From positions 74,462,001 to 74,526,000 of the forward strand of contig OY740783.1 in assembly GCA_963514005.1 (NCBI GenBank): 64,000 bases of DNA. Direction: 5' to 3'. The position numbers and the translations under genes are program-made. The notes beneath the pieces were generated by a model. It had not been told where the DNA came from. It saw only the letters and a program-made list of their open reading frames with translations, and made no database searches. Each line of letters starts with the position of its first letter. Position 1 is the first letter of the stretch. Positions 4,341 to 32,100 of the stretch are shown here, in pieces. Source of the DNA: Raja brachyura. Taxonomy: Eukaryota.

Positions 4341-5633
4341 TGATGTGTTGGAGAAATATACAGGCCAATTTTTTTTTTTTCTCTCGTTTGTTTCTAACCC
4401 AACTTTGGAGACCTTCTAATATAGTCTAATATACTGTAGTTCAATGAAGCACATTGCAAAGATACAGTATGTTAGAACAGTAATTTTGATAATGCTGGAC
4501 ATGATTATGCTATTTAATCATTTAATTACATTTAGCATTAGGTCTAGTTATCTCATAATGTTTCACTTGTCAAATTGTTCCTATCCAATTTAGATTTGTA
4601 ATATAGCCTTCCCCACCGCATAGCCCCATTTTTCATTAAATTTAAATTTAGATTGACTGTTTTTCAAGTAAAAATAGAGATAATTGTTATTGAAGGAGGC
4701 TGTTCATCCTGTAATCGACTTCTTGTGTAAATACTCAGTCATACATTACAGAAACATGCCCTTTGGTGCAACTTGTCCATGCCAAACAAGATGCCAAGAT
4801 GCCAATGTAAGCAATACTTGACAGTATTATCTTTGACAATAAAGGAAACTGAACAAGATTCAAATTTGTTCTAAGCCCCAGAGCTGGCCTGACACAGTCC
4901 AGATTCTATAGGATAAGGCTCTATAGGATGTGGCTCTTGCCTAATGAGACCTGTGTCTACTGGGAGGTTTTATTCCATTCAGAACAAAACACTGAGGTGG
5001 AATTTCATTATTCCATTTTTAAAAATCAAATAATTTCATGTGAACAAATTGGAAAATCTTTTTCCCTCTTGTGACATAATTGTCGCTTACATTCTTGCTC
5101 AAATTAAAATGAAGATGAATCTTAGATTAAAACCACTGCCTTCAAATGTCAATGCCCAAAGTTCTGAACTCTTTCCCTAAACCTCTCCTCCTCACTATCT
5201 TTCCTTCCTGCTTTAATATATCTGCACAAAAAACTAAAAATACATCTGTACAAAAAACTAAAACAATATGAACTTAATCTATGAAAAATAGGTGACTATG
5301 TTTTAAAGCTAGCTCTCCTCAAGCTTTTGGTCATCTCCACCCAATATATCCTAATATCTATTATATTAATTTAACTGAATTGAATAAATTGTCATGGTTC
5401 AAAACTAAGGTGATATGAAGACATGTTTATCAGGCTGGGAATCTAGTTTGTTTTGTCTGTCTCACAGGAATAATTTTGAATCAATCCATTAGTTTTAGAA
5501 CCGGAATTAACCTGAAACTAAAGCATACAGTATAAATGATAAACCTGACCAATTAAGGTAGTAAGTGACCGCCTAAATCGAGATCCAAATTTTGATGGAT
5601 CACCCTGCTAAACATAATCTGTTATATTACCTT

Positions 5634-6219
5634 TGTTACGAAATATAAGCAAGTTTCAAGGATTCGATGAATGAATGGAGAAACAAGATTTAGGAGTACA
5701 AACAACTAACTAGATTTATTGTCAAAATACTGAAAGATTATCAATAAAGTAACGTTGCACATCTCTCTGTGCATCTGAGGCTCCTGTCTACGATCACTGG
5801 CCTGCAGGCATTGAGAGTCCTGACAGTGGCACACACCATGGTCCAAGCTCTCCCCCTCCCCCACAGCACAGTCCTTCAGTCTCTCCACAAAGGTAAAGTT
5901 CCAAACAGCTCGGTTGAAGCATTTACTTATATAATAGCATAAGCTTGCGTTTCTACCTTAATCTAAGAAAAATAAGTGATTATGTTTTCAAACTAGCTAT
6001 CTTCCTTAGTGGCAAACAAGTAAGTTAATTGTCGTATCACATGCCGAGCTAGTCTCTCAGAAGGCAAATCTTATCTTGCAGGTGGCCTCATGACCGGTCC
6101 TAAGTTAGCCTAAGCATCTTTCCAAAACATCTAATTGTTTACCTAACTAAGGCTTGACAAGTGGTGCTGTTAATTTAGCAGGCAACTCCTTTTAGCTGAC
6201 AGTCTGTTTAACCCTTACA
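5634..6219 (-). repeat. 3' LTR of the ERV
   Basis: TGTTACG...CTTACA termini; aligns by eye with 11017-12066 (e.g. the shared block taagttagcctaagcatcYttccaaaacatctaattgttt); purine tract AAAGGGTGGAA just upstream on the - strand (6225-6235). Confidence 0.85.
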
Positions 6220-6439
6220 TTATATTCCACCCTTTGAAGTTGTCAGTCTAAAGCTTTTGTCTAGCGACATGTTACTGTGTATACAAGTACAAGCAGGAAT
6301 AGTCGAAAGTTGAGAAATATGTCCATTCCAGAAGAGTGATAGTCTTTGTGTGTTGATCTTCTCTCTTCGCATTCATTACAATCTTGTCCTGGTACAGTCA
6401 TCTGATTCAGTTGTCACTCCAGAACAGTCACAAACACTT

Positions 6440-6572
6440 GTAGGATGGAACTGCAGATGCTGGTTTAAACCGAAGATAGACACAAAATGCTGGAGTAACT
6501 CAGCGGGACAGGCACCATCTCTGGAGAGAATTAATGGGTGATGTTTCGGTGCGAGACCCTTCTTCACTCTGA
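6440..6572 (-). mobile_element. Penelope-like element 3' tail with degenerate hammerhead motif
   Basis: gaactgcagatgctggtttaaac...tgctggagtaactcagcgggacaggca is the reverse complement of the tail of the PLE at 57230-58495. Confidence 0.75.
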
Positions 6573-6840
6573 TGTCCACAGTCTAACATCCATGGTTTAT
6601 CTGTAAAAAAAAAAGTAACAACTGCTCTTATACTCTGTAAAATGTATTTTACTTGCATTGTGTATGTTTTCCCGATTCTAAACAAACTGATACTGACTGT
6701 CCCTATATTAAAATTGAAAATGCATTATCTTGCCCATCTGCAAAAATGTCAGCAATTTGCAGAGGGTAATTTGGGTAGTGTACCCAAAACCTCACACCAA
6801 TGGCATTTTGGAAGCTGGGGCATGAGCGGGAATAGGCGTG

Positions 6841-7842
6841 AAGTTGTTGTTGGTGTTCATCACCTTCTGTATCGCTGATCTGCTGATTGGGGCGATAGTT
6901 CAGGTTGTAAAAAAGCCTGAGGCAAAACAGTCATCATTCTAATGTAGAGGTAGCAATAGATAATAGGTACAGGAGCAGGCCATTTGGCCCTTCAAGCCAT
7001 CACTGCCATTCAATGTGATCATGGCTGATAATCCCCAATCAGTATCCCTTTCTTGCCTTCTCCCCCATATCCCCTGACTCTGCTATTTTTAAGAACCCTA
7101 TCTTGCTCTCTCTTAAAAGCATCCAGAGAACCTGCCTCCACTGCCTTCTGAGGCAGAGAATTCCACAGACTCGCCACTCTCTGTGAGAAAAGGTGTTTCC
7201 TTGTCTCCGTTCTAAATGGCTTACTCCTTATTCTTAAACTGTGGCCCCTGGTTCTGGACTCCCCCAACATCGGGAACATGTTTCCTGCCTCTAGTGTGTC
7301 CAAGCCCTTAACAACCTTATGTTTCATTGAGATCCCATCCTTCTAAACTCCAGAGTGTACAAGCCCAGCTGCTCCATTCTCTCAGCATATGACAGTCCCG
7401 CCACCCCGGGAATTAACCTTGTAACCTACGCTGTATTCCCTCAATAGCAAGAATGTCCTTCCTCAAATTAGGGCACACAATACACCTAGTCTCACTAGGG
7501 CTCTGTACAACTGCAGAAGGACCTCTTTGCCCCTATATTTGAATCCTCTTGTTATAAAGGCCGACATGCCATTCGCTTTCTTCACTGCCTGATGTACAAG
7601 GACCCCCTGATCCCGTTGTACTTCCCCTTTTCCCAACTTGACACCATTTAGATAGTAATCTGCCTTCCTGTTTTTGCTACCAAAGTGGATAACCTCACAT
7701 TTATCCGCATTAAACTTCATCTGCCATGCATCTGCCCATTCCCCCAACCTGTCCAAGTCACCCTGCATTCTCAGAGCATCCTCCTCACAGTTCACAATGC
7801 CACCCAGCTTTGTGTCATCTGCAAATTTGCTAATGTTACTTT
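6841..7842 (-). mobile_element. CR1 LINE, 5'-truncated, with an extra ~115 bp 3' extension, inserted into the ERV integrase
   Basis: ORFs 7463-7795 and 7019-7327 (LQGDLDRLGEWADAWQMKFNADKCEVIHFG; SRTRGHSLRI..FSQRV.SLWNSLP) are the CR1 ORF2 C-terminus. Confidence 0.9.
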
Positions 7843-7844
7843 GA

Positions 7845-8345
7845 GCGTAGGCGTAAGATGCTTAATCTGTTCCTTAATCAGGTCATTCACCCTCTCAATC
7901 AGGCCTGATGCTTGGAGTTAGTAGGGGATGTGTAACAGCCAATACACACCATTACCAGACGCTCATCCTCGCACCCTCTGTCTTCACAAGTGGGATCCGT
8001 TATCACACTGTATTTCAAGAGGGTCGCTTGTGGTCAGCTAAAAGCTGTTGTATTGTCCTGGTCATCTTTGACAGAAGAAATAACCATCAAAAGCCCAGTA
8101 AGTGGCCACCATCTTTAAAAGATATTGGTTACTTTGCTGCAGGAGAAGTGGACCAATGTAGTCAATCTGCCAAAACTGTGCAGGGCTGCTCCCTTGCTTA
8201 ATGTGTGCCATATGTCATTTAAACACACACACACACTCATTTGTGTCCACAAATGGCACACACACTTTAAATCTGGCAAAAGAGAGTGGTGTTTACCCCA
8301 TTCTACAGTATCTTGAATTCCTAAATATCTGGACATGTCATCTGC
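7845..8345 (-). pseudogene. ERV integrase remnant
   Basis: Manual - strand translation across frameshifts gives FWQIDYIGPL, PLEIQCDNGSH and WLLHIPY*LQASGLIERVNDLIKEQIK, i.e. the D,D,E core. Confidence 0.88.
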
Positions 8346-8357
8346 CCTTACACAAGG

Positions 8358-8388
<31 letters not shown>

Positions 8389-8419
8389 CGTCTGTTCTTC
8401 ATTTATGGTTTTGCCCGAT

Positions 8420-9240
8420 GGGCTTTCCAGCGATGTTCATGTCATTCTCTTCTACTTCGCTAACCAAATAGCCACGCTCTTGGCAACAGCCCAGACATCA
8501 GTGGAGATATGAGCATCTTCTTCCAGTATCAGTTGGACTGTGGCCATTTCTGCACATTGGCTGGCTCCTGCAGAGTCCTTTTGCTGTATAATAGTCTGAG
8601 TATCAGGGTTAAAAGCTGCTGCCTTCCAGCATTGCCTTCCGCTCTTGTACACAGCAGAGAAATCCATGAAGCATGCACGTCCTTGCTGAGCAGGCGATAG
8701 TCTGCTCAGTAGCACCCCCAATGTAATTGGCAAAACTGGCAAGGTAGGCAGTTTCAGAAACCAGCTCATGTCATTCGCTGACACCGTTCATGCCTTGGGC
8801 AGGTCTTTCAGCAATGTACCAATTCCATTTAACAACATCAGGCACTGCAGCTGTTAAAAATGGTTCTTGCTTATTCAACTGCCAATAGTAGTTGGTGAAT
8901 GACAATCGACTATCAGATTTCTTAACTGCTCAGACTGGGCTATTGTCGCAGAAACAGCAGGTTAGATGATCCCTGCCTAGAAGTCGGTCTGTACGTTCTC
9001 CAATTTCTTTCTGACCACTCAGTGTGGAATATTGTTTTAAGCACATGACACAATGTGAGTTAGGACCAGGACATGTTCCCGTTTAGCATTGCCCACCACC
9101 ACTGTCACGCTCCGTATTCCACAAGAGAAATTTCCCAAAGTGGTCTGTGGAGTTGATCCCTTTAACAGATCCAAGCCCAGAAAGTTTTACACAGACAGTC
9201 TGTGGAACACTTATCAATTGACAATCTAATAACTGTCCAT
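8420..9240 (-). pseudogene. ERV protease C-terminus, RT N-terminus, tether and RNase H remnants
   Basis: LGLDLLKG (protease end); KQYSTLSGQKEI..AGII*PAVS..NSPV*AVKKSD..LNKQEPFLTAAVPDVV (RT start) joined directly to KWNWYIAERPAQG (tether); ORF 8452-8784 ACFMDFSA..WKAAAFNP..ASQCAEM..ISTDVWAVAKSVAIWL (RNase H). Confidence 0.88.
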
Positions 9241-9423
9241 ACTGCATGAATGAGCACCCCCCCCCCCCCCCCCCCCCCAGGGTTTATTCCCTTGGATCTA
9301 ACAATGCCATTTCCCTCTGAACATTTCCCCCTTTCCGATAAGGTTATCTGTTCATGTAGCCTCAGGTCTCCATGTGATACTGTGGGGGTTGCTCCTCGTA
9401 ATTGAGCCTTGGAGCCCTAGACC

Positions 9424-9454
<31 letters not shown>

Positions 9455-9529
9455 ACCTCCACCCCCAGTCCCAGTCTAATGGGCGGCTGAGGCACCATGA
9501 TCGAAGAAGCTGTTCCAGGTCAGGATCAA

Positions 9530-10984
9530 GCTATATCATGGGAGGCACAAAGGATATCAATGCCTCTTCCTCCACCCCCTCCCCCTTTGTGATTTTTCCT
9601 GCCTGTGTCTGCCTTCTCTCACAATGCTGTCTCCAAAGGTCATAGAGTACCACAATGGGAAGACCATCAATCTTGTTTCTTTCCATCCCGGCTTTTAACA
9701 TTTCTTTTCTTGTAAGCCTCTGCTTATTCTTCCTTGTCCCCATGCTTCCTTTACTTGCAGTCACGTGTTGTCCCAGATTTACCTTGGCTGCTTTAGTTTT
9801 AACCTGCTTCACCTCCACTTCCTCCAGTTCTGCAAGCATATTAGCAACCTCTGCTACAGTCTTCCCTTTTGCCGGCCCAAGCATAACCAACAAAATGCTA
9901 CACAAATAGGCAGGCACTGTTCTAATCAGACGGCTACACATGCCGCTGGTGAACCTTTCAGCCTCAGGACCTGCAAAATGCTGCCCTTTGAGAAGCCATG
10001 TCCTGTAACATTGAAATTGCTTCTCGAGCTGTGCGCCAGGGCTGGGGTTCTGATTCCCAGTCCATGGGATAGCGGTCCTTTAGGGCCTGGGTGATCCAGT
10101 ATGAGAGATAATGTGGCCCTGCATCGGCACGCATTGCTGCCACAATAAGTGGATCTGTACTTCATGTACCCATGCATCTTACTGCTGTCTCTTTTAAATG
10201 CATCTGGCCAACAGCCTGATCTCACAGCCAGGTGAGCCAAGTAGCCAGATGCTCACTGGGTTGCTGTTTCATCCTGGCTCCGAACACTTGTAATTCTGTG
10301 GCACTATAATTCTCGACAGTAGTTAATGTGGTTTCAACCTCTGAATCCAGTTACTTATTTCCCTCCGTTCAGCCTTAACTTTGGTTTGGACTGTGGAACT
10401 GGCTCATACTATCAGTGTATTGTCCTCTTCTTCCCCCTCTGTCCATTCTCTGTGTGACTCATCTGAGTGCCATACATCCCACCCCTGTTGTCAGGGTCCC
10501 AGTCATCTTGTGATAACAGAGCATGCACTTTTGCTGCTCCCACCTGCCACTCCTTATTTAATTGATTTTGCTGTTTAACCATAGTTAATTTACTGGTGGT
10601 ATCAATTTGTTTCAATTCCTCCTTCTCTGCCCGTTCCTGTGCTGCCTTTGCTGTCTCAGTCAGGGTCAAGCAGTGTCTTTCCAAGGCTTTCCGACTCTTT
10701 CCTTAATCTTTCAATTTCAATTTCATATTTTTCCAATAACGACACTCTGCTGCCATTCCAATTGTGGGAGATCCTCTTTCTTTTTGGGCAAATCTATTCT
10801 CTCCAAACATTTAATAATCAAGTATGGTAGTTTTGCTGGTTTATCCTTTAACTCTCTCTCCCAATACTTAGGAAGTCCCCATTCAGCTAGCACATTGGCC
10901 AAAATACCATAAGCTTCAGAATTATCTATCCATCCCAGCACCCAAAAGGTCTCGGGATGTGTATCTTCAATCCTCTTTCTCCAT
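9530..10984 (-). pseudogene. ERV gag remnant
   Basis: Frameshifted pieces: GILANVLAEWGLPKYW, a coiled-coil segment, KVHALLSQDDWDPDN (cf. ERV-L/MaLR KVRALIGKEWDP), LTRKEMLKAGMERNKIDGLPIVVLYDLWRQ (cf. ERV-L gag C-terminus). Confidence 0.8.
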
Positions 10985-10995
10985 GTTTTCACCGA

Positions 10996-11013
10996 ATCCT
11001 GTTGGCTACACCA
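10996..11013 (-). promoter_or_regulatory. Primer binding site, tRNA-Ser type
   Basis: - strand TGGTGTAGCCAACAGGAT, 3 nt from the LTR end. The + strand (cga)atcctgttggctacacca matches a vertebrate tRNA-Ser 3' end as recalled (CGAATCCTGTCGGCTACGCCA), with both differences at CpG sites. Confidence 0.85.
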
Positions 11014-11016
11014 AAA

Positions 11017-12066
11017 TGTAACGAAATACAAGCAGGTTTCAAGGATTCGGATCATTGACTGGAGAATTGTCATTTTGAATAGCACAAACAACTATATTTA
11101 TTAAAACAAAATACTGGAAAATTATAAATTAAGTAAGTTTATTGGCCAAGTATTCACATACAAGGAATTTGCCTTGGTGCTCCGCCCACAAGTAATAACA
11201 TGACATACAGTGACAGTTACGAATGACTCCGAAAACACTAAACATTAATAATAATAAAACATTAATGATAAAACACCATTGATCAAGCATGTGAACCAAC
11301 AAAATACCAGATCTAAGATCAAAGGGAGGCTACAGATTTTTGGCTGTTGCGTAGAGCAACTACTCGTGGATAAAAACTGTTTTTATATCTGGCTGTGGCA
11401 GCTTCAACAATCCGGAGTCGCCTTCCAGAGGGAAGTGATTCAAAGAGTTTGTGGTGAGAGGGGTCAGAGATTATCTTGGCCGCTCGCTTCCTGGCCCTTG
11501 CAGTGTACAGTTCATCAATGGAGGGAAGAAAGTAACAAGCAATAAAGTCTCACGCCCCTTTGCACATCCGAGTCTCCAGAATGTGATGGCTGGCCTGAAG
11601 ACCTCAAGAGTCCTGACACCGTCTCCCCCTCTCTCCCTCTCTCCCTCTCTCCCTCCCCCAAAGGTGAGGTCCTTCTTTCTCTCCCCCGAAGGCGAAGTTC
11701 CCAGCAGCTCGGTCAAAGCATGCGCTTACATCACAAAATAAGTTTTGTTTTACCCAAATCTAAGAACAATAAATGACTATGCTTAATAAGTGACTATGCT
11801 CTATCCTCCTTTGTGCCAAAATCATGATTTATTTGTCATATCATTCGCTGAGCTAATCTCTGATGATTCTGGGAAAGGAAAAAAATATATCTTGGTGACC
11901 TTGTAAGAGGCCTCGTGGTTCACTGGTCCTTCTAAGTTAGCCTAAGCATCCTTCCAAAACATCTAATTGTTTTCCCAGCTAAGGCTTGACATGTGGTGCT
12001 GTTAATTTAGCTGACAACTCCATGTCTGTATAAAATGGAACTGACACTGTCTGTTCAACTCTTACA
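11017..12066 (-). repeat. 5' LTR of the ERV (contains a ~390 bp LINE-tail insertion)
   Basis: TGTAACG...CTTACA termini; adjacent to the PBS; homologous to 5634-6219 apart from the insert at ~11137-11529. Confidence 0.85.
11137..11529 (-). mobile_element. LINE 3' fragment (Rex1/L2-like) inserted in the 5' LTR
   Basis: Absent from the other LTR; flanked by aagtaa on both sides; AATAAA-containing tail on the - strand. Confidence 0.6.
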
Positions 12067-12639
12067 TTTCTACCCTTCGTATAAGTTTGTAACTTCAATC
12101 CAAAATTTGGTTTTAAATCCTGTTTCTCCTATTTCTTATGAAATGGTAGGTTATGTTCCTCAGGTTGTTTGGAATCAGTAGAAAAACATGGCATGTTTTC
12201 CTTCCTGGGATTAGTTCACCTTCTGTGCCAGCGCACATCCAAAGTCAAATTATTGATTCTGGGTGAAGCTTGGTTATGGAGCTGAGCAGAACTGGAGATG
12301 CGTTGTCCTTCCCCATTAATTCCAAATATAAGTAAAAGTTATCTTATTATTATTATAACTCTTCTTTTCTTCTATTCCCTGGAAGGATTTGTAAGGCAGG
12401 ACAATAATTTTGAAGTTAATTCACTCCTGGAGTTGGAATCCAGATAGATCAGTGACTATAGGGGAATGGAAATCATTTCACGCTGGGAAATGGCTGTGGA
12501 TGTTTGGATGAACTCAATGTTGCAATGAAGGCCGGGTGCGAAGTGGACATGTACAGCACTGGGGTGGGCAAAATTTAATGTAGCAATGGACAAATATTGT
12601 TTTTTAACAGAAAAATGAATGAAGAATGGTTGTGGATGG

Positions 12640-17661: not shown

Positions 17662-19583
17662 CTTTGACGGAATACAAGTCTTTGATAAATATTTCTGGGT
17701 TGCCTGGCGGTGTTAGTTTGCTGACTGATCACAATCAGTGATGCCCTGAATCTTGGAAAACCAGCCAGGGAAAATACTCAAGTACAATGGCGTAAACACA
17801 GGAGAATTTCACATCAGATGGCTTTGGCAAACTGGGTATCAGCAATGTGCCTTAAAGGTAATATCCCCAGCAAACCCTTGGTAGGGTGCTGAGGCATCAA
17901 AGCTGGTCAAAAATGACCAGGACAGCCGTAGGTACCGAATGGCAGCTGGTCTTGTTTCAACAGAGTTTCATGGACATAGATCAACACAGGAATAGGCCCT
18001 TCACTCACATCTGTGCCAAAGATGATGCCAAGACCAACTCTTGTCTGCCTGCACATAATCCATATTCCTCCATTTCCTGCATATCCATATGTCTAAAGGT
18101 CTCTCAAATGCCATTATCGTATCTGCCTCCATCACCCCGCCTAGCAGCACGTTCCAGGCACTCACCACCCTCGGTGTAAAAATACTTGCCCCACACACTT
18201 GCGTTAAATTTTGCCGGTGGTCTGCACCAAACCATGAGATGGGCCGAGCTAGAGGCACTGCCACAATCTTGACACATTCATCAAGCTGGTAAACCTCTGA
18301 TTTACCTGTCACTGCTTCTCCCTTCTCATCCCTCTGTCTCCCTGCCATCCGCTGCTCTATCTCATCGCTTCAGGTCTTTAGTTGCTGGATATTTACGTCC
18401 TCAGTGGAGGTATATCCAAAGTAATCAAACTGAACAGATAGATCACATGTCGAAACAAAGAACTGCAGATGTTGGTTTGTACCAAAGATAGACACAATGT
18501 ACTGGAATACCTTAGCAGGTCAGGCAGAGAAAAAGGATAGGTGACTTTTTGGGTTGTGGCCCTTCTTAAGTCACTTCAGACTCCAGCGCTTTATCTCTGA
18601 TAGATCACATCTTCTGGATGTGAAAAGTCAACCATCAGCAAAATTCTCCACAAATATTATTTCCCAGTTATGTGTATGAACTGTCAATACTTTGTTGCTA
18701 TTTTCCTGTGATCGATTAATCCAGTCAATCAGTCTAGAATACATCCATGTTTTTGCTATTCAGCATCAGCAAGACTGTGAAACCCATGGTCGACAGGTTA
18801 AGACGATAAATTTGTCATGTTGCTTTAGCAGTCATTAACATAATTTCCAATATTCTTCTCCTGAGGGTGTTGGTTATACACAGCCCAGTATTCTGCAGTG
18901 AGACACAGTGAGTTTGATGAGGCTATACTGAGGCTATTAGTATGCAGCGTTACAAATTGTGCCCTTACTTGGATTCCAAATATGTTTGCATAGCCTCCAA
19001 TTTCCACTCATTTTTATAATTGTATTTCATTTGTCCTACTGATGATTCACAGTTCCAATCCATATCTGCCCATAAATTAAAAGTTAAACATAAGTTCACA
19101 GACACATCATTTCCATTTAACATGCTGCAATTGTATTAAATAAAAAGACAAAATGAACAAAGGCATAATCAATACCAGGGAATAATGAAGCTACCAGTAT
19201 TGTTCGCCATTTTCCCCCCATCCTCTGAATATTAATGATGAGCCATTCAATTCATTACAGTTCTTAGTGTCACCTGGTTAATTACAACGAATAACTTCCA
19301 TAAATGACAAGAGCTAAAAGTTGTATGCTGGAAATACACATATTTTCCAGCTCTGTCGTAGCTGTTGACACTTGATTCCAGGAACAGCTAAGCATCCTGT
19401 TTTAAAATCCTAATATCTGCTCCTCTGCTGATTTATTTTTATATTATCAACAACATTCTGGATTGAAGTATTTTCCCTGGCTGGTTTTCCAAAATTCAGG
19501 GCATCACTGATTGTGATCAGTCAGCAAACTAACACCGCCAGGCAACCCAGAAATATTTATCAAAGACTTGTATTCCGTCAAAG
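17662..19583. repeat. 117-bp inverted repeat pair (17662-17778 / 19467-19583)
   Basis: The arms are reverse complements with one mismatch (aatcttgg vs aattttgg); spacer 1688 bp. Confidence 0.92.
18449..18598 (-). mobile_element. Short Penelope-tail-derived insertion with 12-bp TSD
   Basis: GATAGATCACAT at 18437-18448 and 18599-18610 flanks a PLE tail with a decayed hammerhead motif. Confidence 0.8.
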
Positions 19584-29126: not shown

Positions 29127-32100
29127 TGTTGTTGTTGTTGAAGTTGTTGTTGTTGTTGGTGTTCATCACATTCTGTATCACTGATCTACCGATCGGGGCG
29201 ATTGTTCAGGTTGTAAAAAAACCTGAGGCAAAACAGTCATCGTTCTAATGTAGAGGTAGCAATAGGCAATAGGTATACGAGCAGGCCATTCAGCCCTGAT
29301 CATCCACAATCAGTACCCCGTTCCTGCCTTCTCCCCATATCCCTTGATTTTGCTAGTCCTAAGAGCTCTATCTAACTCTCTTTTAAATGCATCCAGTGAG
29401 GCAGAGAATTCCACAAATTCGCAAATCTCTGTGTGAAAAAGTTTTTCCTCATCTCAGTTCTAAATGGCCTATCTTTTATTCTTAAACTGGTGCCCCGGTT
29501 CTGGACTCCCCCAACATCAGGAACATGTTTCCTGCATCTACCATGTCCGATCCCTTAATAATGTTGTATGTTTCTATAAGATCCCCTCATACTTCTAAAT
29601 TCCAGTGAATACAAGTCCAGTCGTTCCATTCTTTTATCATATGACAGTCCATCCATCCCGGGAATTAATCTTGTGAACCTACGCTGCACTGCCTGAATAA
29701 CAAGAAAGTCCTTCCTCAAATTAGGAGACCAAAACTGCACACAATACTCCAGGTGTGGTCTCACCAGGGCCCTGTACAACTGCAGAAGGACCTCTTTACA
29801 CCTATACTCAAATCCTCTTGTTATGAAGGCCAACATGCCATTAGCTTTCTTCACTGCCTGCTGTACCTGCATGCTTACTTTCAGTGACTGATGTACAAGG
29901 ACATCCAGGTCTTGTTGCACTTCCCCTTTACCTAACCTGACACCATTCAGATAATAATCTGCTTTCCTGTTCTTGCCACCAAAGTGGATAATCTCACATT
30001 TATCCACATTATACTGCATCTTCCCTGCATTTGGCCACTCACCTAACCTATCCGTCACCCTGCATCTTCAAAGCATCCTCTTCACAGTTCACACTGCCAC
30101 CCAGCTTTGTGTCATCTGCCAATTTTCTAATGTTACTTTTAATACCTTAATCTAAATAATTTCTATTGTAAATAGCTGCAGTCCCAGCACCGAACCTTGC
30201 GTCATCGCACTAGTCACTTCCTGCCATTCTGAAAGGAACCCGTTAAGTCCAACTCTTTGTTTCCTGTTTGCCAACCAATTTTCTATCTATGTCAATGCCC
30301 TACCCCCAACACCATGTGCTCTAATTTTGCCCAGTAATCTCCTGTGTGGGACCTTATCAAAGGATTTCTGAAAGTCCAGATACACTACATCCACTGGCTC
30401 TCCCTTATCCATTTTCCCAGTTACATCTTCAAAAAATTCCAGAATGTTAGTCAAGCAAAATTTCCCTTTCATAAATCCATACTAACTTGGACCGATCCTG
30501 TTACTGCTATCAAAATGCACCACTATTACATGTTTAATAATTGACTCCAGCATCTTCCCCACCACCAATGTCAGGCTAACTGGTCTATAATTCCTTTCTT
30601 TCTCTCTCCCTCGTTTCTTAAAAAGTGGGATAACATTAGCTACCCTCCAATCCACAGGAACTGATCCAGAACCTATAGAACATTGGAAAATGATCACCAA
30701 TGCATCCACGATTTCTAGAGCCACCTCCTTGAGTACCCTGGGATGCAGACCATCAGGCCCTGGGGGTTCATCAGCCTTCAGTCCCATCAATCTACCCAAC
30801 ACCATTTACTAACTAATGTAAATTTTCTTCAGTTCTTCCATCATCCTAGATCCTCTGTCCCCTAGTACATCTGGGAGATTTTTTTCTGTCTTCCTCAGTG
30901 AAGACAGAACCAAAGTACCTGTTCAACTTATCTGCCATTTCCTTGTTCCCCATAATAAATTCACCTGTTTCTGCCTTCAAGGGACCCACATTTGTCTTAA
31001 CTAATCTTTTTCTTTTCACATACCTAAAGAAGCTTTTTCTATCCTCCTTTATATTAGCTTACCTTCACACCGGGGAGATGGCAGCCCTGCCGGCAGTCTG
31101 TTTGTTTGTTTGAATGTTCTTCGGTGTGTTTTATGTGGGGGGATCGGGGGGAAACTTTGTTTTTACAAGTTCTTACCTTGCCGGAGATGTGATTATTTTT
31201 TCGGATCACATTCTCCGGACTCTGTGGCCTACCATCGATGGAGCTGGAAGCCTCCTCGGACTGTCGTGAGCCCCACTGCGGGGCGTGGACTTAACATCGG
31301 AGTAGATCGCTTGCCTAGGATCGCTCCCACCGCGAACTTACCATCTAGGACTCACAGTCTCGGGATAGGCTAGTCGGGAGCTCCAACATCGCGGAAGGTT
31401 CGACCAGCCCCGACGCGAGGTTCGATCGCCCGGCGCGGGGGAGCTGACATTCCCCCAGTGCAGGAGCAGATCGCATCAATGCAGGAGCAAATCGCCTCGA
31501 TGCGGAGGACCCGAATGCCGCCGGCTACGGGAGTCAAGACCATCCCGTCAACGGAGGGCTCGAGGCCCCCGACCGAGGAAGAACAAAAGGAAGGACTTAA
31601 ACTTTATTTCGCCTTCCATCACAGTGAGGAATGTGTAGGAGTCACTGTGGTGGATGTTCATGTTAGAATTTGTTTTTGAGTGATTTGTTGCTTATAATTG
31701 TATGACTGACCTGGTCAATGAAATTCCTCATATGTTGTAAAACATACTTGGCGAATAAAGTGTGATTCTGATTCTGATTTTTCTTTTTAGTTACCTTCCG
31801 TTGTTCTTTTCCAATCCTCTGGCTTTCGCCTCATCTTTGCTACGTTGTACTTTTTCTTTTTTAGTTTTACACCATCCTTGACTTCCCTTGTCAGCCATAC
31901 ATGCCTCTTACTCCCCTTAGAATTTTTCCTCATTTTTGGAATGAAATGATCCTGCATCTTCTGGATTATTCCCAGAAATTCCTGCCATTGTTGTTCCACC
32001 ATTATCCCTGCTAGGGTCCCTTTCCAGTCAACTTTGGCCAGCTCTTCTCTCATGCCTCCATAGTCCCCTTTGTTGAACTGCAATACTGACCCTTCTGATT

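Follow-up and report, generated by a model that had tools for sequence, protein, structure and literature searches.

A stretch of 64,000 nucleotides of the Raja brachyura genome (GCA_963514005.1, contig OY740783.1, positions 74,462,001 to 74,526,000; hereafter the window) contains a provirus-shaped element on its minus strand, between positions 12071 and 5634. The full layout typical of Retroviridae was recognized, i.e. long terminal repeat (LTR), primer binding site (PBS), gag, pro, pol, polypurine tract (PPT) and LTR, bordered by a target-site duplication. The element is very probably a fixed and decayed endogenous retrovirus (ERV) of the ERV-L/S-like part of class III, primed by tRNA-Ser and devoid of env and dUTPase, which is likely to have spread intracellularly in the germ line of an early ancestor of skates. 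It encodes nothing intact at present.

Structure of the provirus

The preliminary description of this DNA had reported two LTRs, a PBS, a PPT and fragments of gag, pro, reverse transcriptase (RT), RNase H and integrase in this order on the minus strand, and the LTR alignment, the order of the motifs and the collinearity with an intact stingray gag-pol protein (P0324) bear this out. The features, with the evidence for each, are as follows (window coordinates).

12072..12076, minus: 5' copy of the 5-bp target-site duplication (agrees with the 3' copy at 4/5 positions, and at all five in organisms E and F)
11017..12071, minus: 5' LTR with a later insertion of ~400 nt (LTR alignment, starts of family LTRs, orthologues in E and F)
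11140..11545, minus: 3' fragment of a high-copy element resembling a long interspersed element (LINE), inside the 5' LTR (in neither the 3' LTR nor the solo LTRs L098-L101)
10993..11013, minus: tRNA-Ser(AGA) PBS, TGG-type (17/21 letters match the tRNA 3' end plus CCA)
9500..10984, minus: gag remnant with several frameshifts and stops (collinear with stingray gag-pol and stingray Fv1-like gag)
9065..9420, minus: protease remnant with poly-G expansions (P0324 residues 633-710 match 9180-8950; 33% of the domain recovered)
8831..9064, minus: N-terminal part of RT, ending at a deletion of ~960 nt (alignments with stingray proteins P0004 and P0324)
8420..8836, minus: end of the tether (connection) and RNase H remnant (protein alignments; RNase H tree)
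7844..8350, minus: N-terminal remnant and core of integrase (44% identity to P0324; Pfam rve E = 0.0047, short of the curated cut-off)
6952..7843, minus: 5'-truncated CR1-type LINE in integrase (RVT_1 E = 0.002; CR1 label from the preliminary description)
6660..6951, minus: short linker and C-terminal tail of integrase, no dUTPase (6798-6667 matches Pol tails)
6439..6572, strand not assigned: high-copy insertion resembling a short interspersed element (SINE), within the 3' untranslated stretch (repeated many times in the window and other loci; not at this place in paralogues L013, L160 and L165)
6225..6235, minus: PPT (same tract ahead of the 3' LTRs in L013, L099, L160, L162 and L174)
5634..6224, minus: 3' LTR, 591 nt (LTR alignment, starts of family LTRs)
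5629..5633, minus: 3' copy of the target-site duplication (pairs with 12072..12076)

The two LTRs are 79% identical, with a Kimura two-parameter (K2P) distance of 0.24 over an alignment of 574 columns; the ~400-nt insertion occurs in the 5' copy. The LINE-like fragment at 11140..11545 has a summed contig depth of ~1e4-1e6 in relatives. LTRs of the same family elsewhere in the genome have TGTAATGTAAG as their first letters, immediately next to the purine tract or to flanking DNA, and the LTRs of the window therefore begin at 12071 and 6224. Thus, the TG..CA pair described previously was correctly recognized, but the limits of the provirus lie 5 nt further out: the TG taken as the start is the second one, 5 nt inside the LTR, and the opening dinucleotide has decayed in both window copies. 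The orthologous LTR of organisms E and F starts with TG at 12071. A 48-nt stretch 300 nt beyond the provirus (5273-5320) is 85% similar to part of the 3' LTR.

The length of the target duplication was examined in 27 family loci, of which 11 passed filters requiring that both ends be found and that neither PPT nor PBS be present; adding the window and L013 manually gave 13 rows, one of them a duplicate locus and one with a misplaced 5' end. The five-base flanks were 68% identical, compared with 31% in shuffles (0/2000 shuffles reached this value), and lengths of 3, 4, 6 and 7 were at chance level in the same test. A 5-bp duplication is a mark of ERV-L, shared by this family. The duplication also bears on the question of whether the two LTRs derive from different proviruses joined by recombination, in which case their divergence would provide no date. 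The distance between the two LTRs (0.33) is comparable to their distance from three solo LTRs located elsewhere (0.30-0.37), as expected from such a union, but the match of the flanks in 4 of 5 positions in the window, and in all positions in organisms E and F, largely refutes this explanation, to which we give very little credence. Gene conversion between the two LTRs is nevertheless conceivable.

The tRNA-Ser primer claimed in the preliminary description is well founded. All 4 mismatches between the PBS and the tRNA-Ser(AGA) of the same genome are transitions, and the PBS of paralogue L060 matches this tRNA in 17 of 18 letters. A pattern search of the genome gave 14 places, and ARAGORN identified seven of the eight that were fetched as tRNA-Ser(AGA), the remaining one being unassigned.

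Three-frame translation revealed the gag, pro, RT, RNase H and integrase motifs in the order given above, in broken frames, and P0324 is collinear with the window from residue 5 (at 10977) to residue 1473 (at 7846). The relatives have a degraded tether and, after it, a second RNase H; the end of this tether and the RNase H are preserved in the window. Pfam analysis of 15 open reading frames (ORFs) of the window detected no retroviral family, the sole RT match being the CR1 piece, and weak word-based searches with the window gag and with the RT thumb of a paralogue yielded no homologous proteins. The Atlas contained no usable match to the gag ORF, a result that speaks neither for novelty nor for absence, and no RNA record holding the element was found, which has no bearing on its expression. 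The window gag is related (E = 2e-14) to a stingray protein named Fv1-like by RefSeq, the comparison being with this annotated protein rather than with Fv1 itself; four gag-sized members of the P0324 cluster bear the RefSeq name 'Friend virus susceptibility protein 1-like'. According to the part of the source consulted, Fv1 derived from the gag of MERV-L (PMC4977317).

It had been proposed that pol is hidden by frameshifts. Frameshifts are indeed present, but the core of RT, together with the thumb and most of the connection, has been deleted at ~8831-8836 (~960 nt, or ~310-320 residues), so that alignments jump from residue 379 to 700 of P0004 and from 762 to 1073 of P0324. Both sides of the junction share a 6-nt microhomology. 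Such a deletion could also characterize a MaLR-like, non-autonomous subfamily copied without RT by a helper element, given that many copies carry internal deletions and that L013 lacks the RT core while retaining both LTRs, the PBS and the PPT. However, the breakpoints of L013 are different, RT reads on beyond the breakpoint of the window in L011, L014, L017, L021 and L026, and none of 18 other family matches examined shares the junction. The loss of RT is therefore private to the window locus. A MaLR-like subfamily with a common RT deletion was rejected, since the independent insertions examined do not share the deletion, and we consider this explanation very unlikely.

The CR1 had been thought to disrupt the env region, which is not the case. 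The segment 6798-6667, downstream of the CR1, aligns with the C-terminal ~45 residues of related Pol proteins (E = 4e-5), a contig of organism F joins 7844 directly to 6951 without the CR1, and the spacing after the integrase core is equally short in the CR1-free paralogues L160, L165 and L170. The CR1 therefore lies inside integrase, between the core and the C-terminal tail, and its insertion removed nothing. It was acquired after the split from organism F. The distance between core and tail is ~110-120 nt in L160 and L165, and corresponds to ~50 codons in L160 compared with ~155 in the dUTPase-bearing protein P0181; no match to dUTPase was found in the window or in the loci searched. The gap between the tail and the PPT/LTR is ~300 nt net of the SINE.

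No env was detected in the CR1-free paralogues or in an orthologue (organism F). The spacing between tail and PPT is equally short in the window, L013, L020, L160, L162, L165 and L174, which, together with the lack of any sequence removed by the CR1, argues against an infectious ERV-S-like virus whose env was lost or hidden in the copies seen. The Ser primer and the lack of dUTPase are ERV-S traits, ERV-S and XtERV-S do carry env according to the part of the source consulted (PMC8278194), and the scattered occurrence of the clade in fish, amphibians and birds would fit host jumps; we nevertheless regard the infectious virus as unlikely.

A second CR1 of the window (29149-30139, minus strand) reaches further 5' than that of the provirus, the bodies of the two being ~81-89% identical per block. 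Its 3' end carries ~108 nt of the post-integrase sequence of the provirus (93% identity), followed by an AAC-repeat tail, which looks like 3' transduction or local conversion.

Phylogenetic placement

Reference rows of the trees were natural proteins and IMG/VR contigs, and each family fragment, taken as one natural frame, formed a row of its own. The foamy label was checked against PDB for L112, and the class I label for L082; the rows that we take to be gamma, delta, beta, alpha, gypsy and snakehead references were labelled from their motifs, domains and genome lengths. The RT tree (IQ-TREE) comprised 46 rows, after 9 redundant or partial references and 2 long rows had been left out; the long foamy and gypsy branches meet in it, as the program warned.

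All three family fragments were placed in a clade (support 100/99) with Pol proteins of mouse, birds, turtle, amphibians, lungfish, bichir, killifish and shark, set apart from the foamy, snakehead-like, class I, class II and gypsy rows. Within this clade, both rows derived from the thumb are joined with stingray P0324 (98/85), in a group (99/92) of stingray and sister skate elements, and the white shark groups with killifish, apart from the stingray-skate group. The window's own RNase H falls into the ERV-L/S-like clade with 98/98, although the bootstrap was not fully settled, and its own integrase does so with 83/83. Approximately unbiased (AU) tests on integrase rejected its union with class I (p = 0.0014), foamy (p = 0.007) and gypsy (p = 0.037) rows. 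Foamy and snakehead-like elements are separate in both the RT and the RNase H trees.

Protein searches gave a similar picture. The RT thumb of a paralogue (P0001, with stops read as X) retrieved 204 library proteins at E <1e-10, the best named matches being from red stingray, caecilian, white shark, bichir and turtle, and the caecilian RT used as a query added frogs, lungfish, killifish, birds and the mouse cluster. The family is 45-52% identical to Pol proteins of the ERV-L/S clade, compared with 20-35% to other elements of the same genome.

These results strongly oppose the view that the motifs are convergent and the provirus belongs to gypsy (Metaviridae) or to class I (gamma/epsilon). RNase H ahead of integrase is common to gypsy and class I, the fragments of the window are short and none reaches the Pfam cut-off, and in PDB the thumb matches foamy and MLV RT about equally well; however, the support of the RT clade, the AU tests and the identity values given above leave this identity, refuted by the RT tree, the integrase AU tests and the RNase H tree, with practically no probability. 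Such a placement had been named in the preliminary description as the outcome that would overturn its class call. Of the motifs likened there to those of ERV-L and ERV-S, DYIGPL cannot serve alone, as it is also present in 4/4 foamy references and in L072, an element of the same genome; the other four pol motifs, as written for the test, were found only among references of the ERV-L/S clade.

The class III call made initially thus stands: judged from its sequence, the provirus belongs to the ERV-L/ERV-S-like branch, because of the three trees, the AU tests, the order of domains, the Fv1-like annotation of stingray gag, the tRNA-Ser primer and the 5-bp duplication.

Several points weigh against this interpretation. 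The RT tree depends on paralogues L011 and L015, as the window has no RT core; the integrase support is just 83/83, and the AU test of its union with the snakehead-like row was borderline (p = 0.05). The trees contain no named HERV-L or HERV-S sequence, and the identity of the mouse row as MuERV-L is inferred from its Mus cluster and from a dUTPase that follows integrase. Within the clade the position is not stable: the thumb groups with stingray P0324 (98/85), the palm shows no clear affiliation, and gag appears by eye nearer to the whale-shark element Rh_ty_ERV3. The pattern used in the tRNA search had itself been derived from the PBS, and the comparison covers tRNA-Ser(AGA) only. Finally, an env-bearing progenitor would be compatible with decayed copies.

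An owl Pol included in the tree (P0165; related proteins are P0178, also from owl, and P0168 from lungfish) groups with lungfish and amphibian rows (97/86) and not with other birds, which may reflect a host jump.

Family copies, orthologues and age

An LTR search of the genome gave 196 candidates, the best 40 of which were scored; the best non-self matches among these were 65-83% identical. Some family loci cover part of the element, and L011 alone of 23 has a nearly continuous stretch from protease to integrase, itself broken. No intact copy was found among those examined in this genome, in searches that score only the best candidates. L160 and L170 (~25 kb apart on C2) have a common inverted junction, at which an LTR end meets the integrase core, as if a rearranged provirus had been duplicated locally; L152 and L153 on C14 are likewise paired.

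The provirus is a single, old, fixed and decayed insertion, present at the same place in five other organisms. Its 3' junction is crossed by contigs of organisms B, C, D and F, its 5' junction by contigs of B, C, D, E and F, and the RT deletion is bridged by contigs of B and F. Organisms E and F have diverged by ~6-7% from the window (30/424 and 48/835 letters, respectively), whereas the window LTRs differ from each other by K2P 0.24-0.33, and the insertion is therefore roughly 3-5 times older than those splits. With an assumed rate of 0.5-1.5e-9 substitutions per site per year, its age would be ~80-330 million years, a weakly calibrated range inflated by alignment noise and CpG decay. A rate of 7e-10 per generation is given for the epaulette shark in the part of the source consulted (PMC10587355); it was not used as a clock, because it leads to implausibly old dates at multi-year generations.

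The history of the element may be envisaged as follows. LTR-driven RNA would have given rise to Gag and Gag-Pol particles, in which the minus strand was presumably primed on tRNA-Ser(AGA) and the plus strand at the PPT, followed by integration with a 5-bp duplication. Because env is missing, the family likely spread by retrotransposition, and not by infection, within the germ line of an early ancestor of skates. After integration, the RT core was lost through a deletion at the microhomology, an event that pre-dates the separation from organisms B and F; besides the CR1, the LINE piece in the 5' LTR and the SINE were also gained.

Relation to known elements

ERV-L elements use a tRNA-Leu primer, and the primer site of the skate family matches tRNA-Ser(AGA) instead. 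MuERV-L and HERV-L resemble this family in belonging to the same RT clade, in lacking env, in the Fv1-like gag of its stingray relative and in the order protease-RT-RNase H-integrase, but in ERV-L the integrase core is followed by a dUTPase (P0180), which the skate family lacks. XtERV-S of Xenopus tropicalis and mammalian ERV-S share with it class III gag and pol and the tRNA-Ser primer; they carry env, and neither is in the trees by name. In the part of the source consulted, the primer of XtERV-S is given as Ser AGA/TGA, ERV-S is without dUTPase and ERV-L without env (PMC8278194). The family is thus an env-less, ERV-L-like one with a primer of the ERV-S type, and belongs neither to ERV-L proper, with which it shares the lack of env but not the dUTPase or the tRNA-Leu primer, nor to ERV-S/XtERV-S, with which it shares the tRNA-Ser primer but not env.

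Close annotated relatives are gag-pol proteins of Hemitrygon akajei (XP_072893665.1 and XP_072891825.1) and the Fv1-like gags, which are collinear over the whole element, have no dUTPase and are sister to the family's RT thumb (98/85). They differ in being ORFs of 1500-1580 aa as annotated, in their 27-57% identity and in a shorter integrase tail. Further relatives were found in bichir, killifish, lungfish and white shark.

The suggestion that the provirus represents an undescribed chondrichthyan lineage is mostly not supported. Elephant shark, whale shark and little skate were screened by Xu et al. in 2018, and in clade Huo the neighbours of the whale-shark element Rh_ty_ERV3 are No_fu_ERV1, HERVL, Murine_ERVL and HERVS, as far as the order of labels goes (PMC6001957, S2 Fig, S2 Data). 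By eye, its gag matches the window in 18/43, 27/56 and 15/25 residues of three stretches, compared with 14/43, 20/56 and 9/25 for stingray gag. The comparison covers gag; the host is likewise an elasmobranch, of a different order. None of the little-skate elements le_er_ERV1-5 is ERV-L-like in the parts shown (PMC6001957). In six chondrichthyan genomes 2843 RT loci of clade III are reported by a 2024 screen in the part of the source consulted, the majority of their ERV RTs, clade III being broader there than the ERV-L/S branch (PMC11089739). No published skate or ray ERV-L/S family was found in the literature, a search that did not cover Dfam and Repbase, and the skate family itself appears to be undescribed. 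As the occurrence in cartilaginous fish is already in print, the provirus adds a family and not a new kind of element. It documents a skate family of the ERV-L/S clade with mixed traits (Ser primer, no dUTPase, no env) and provides, in a lineage that evolves slowly, an orthologous locus that can be dated, which bears on the time of entry of this clade into jawed vertebrates and on the frequency with which env and dUTPase were acquired or lost.

A further suggestion, which we consider rather doubtful, is that skates and rays have their own env-less, dUTPase-less, Ser-primed ERV-L/S sub-lineage, dead in skates and with open gag-pol frames in stingray, and that the insertion may pre-date the skate-ray split. 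If so, the sub-lineage would be an independent parallel to MuERV-L, and the insertion would be among the oldest proviruses in which both LTRs and the target duplication are still readable.

Other elements were also encountered. L083, L084, L085, L094, L095 and L096 represent at least one further decayed family of the ERV-L/S clade, with no DNA match to the provirus; L085 and L096 group with stingray P0003. L082 (C4:73873001-73881000) is an ERV of class I (epsilon-like) whose gag, pol (1176 aa) and env (616 aa, TLV_coat) frames are all open; pol frames of this length occur at several other places, and by eye it resembles le_er_ERV3 of Xu 2018 in the part shown (PMC6001957). A search with class I RT gave no related loci in the 6 stretches searched. 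L072 (C22:35047552-35052318) has 1415-aa open pol frames at several places, groups loosely with the snakehead-like reference (88/88) and by eye matches the little-skate le_er_ERV4, in the part shown, almost residue for residue (PMC6001957). The likeness of L072 and L082 to little-skate elements makes a skate the likely host, in agreement with the cartilaginous fish proposed in the preliminary description. The Logan contig protein P0071 is a class III-like Pol with a thymidylate kinase between RT and RNase H, followed by a thymidine kinase and a dUTPase; no integrase match was found in it, and it is either an assembly chimera or a Pol that has, unusually, captured domains of nucleotide metabolism. 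Finally, a 117-nt inverted repeat of the window (17662-17778 and 19467-19583), with copies 99% complementary and 1688 nt apart, probably represents the ends of a young DNA transposon.

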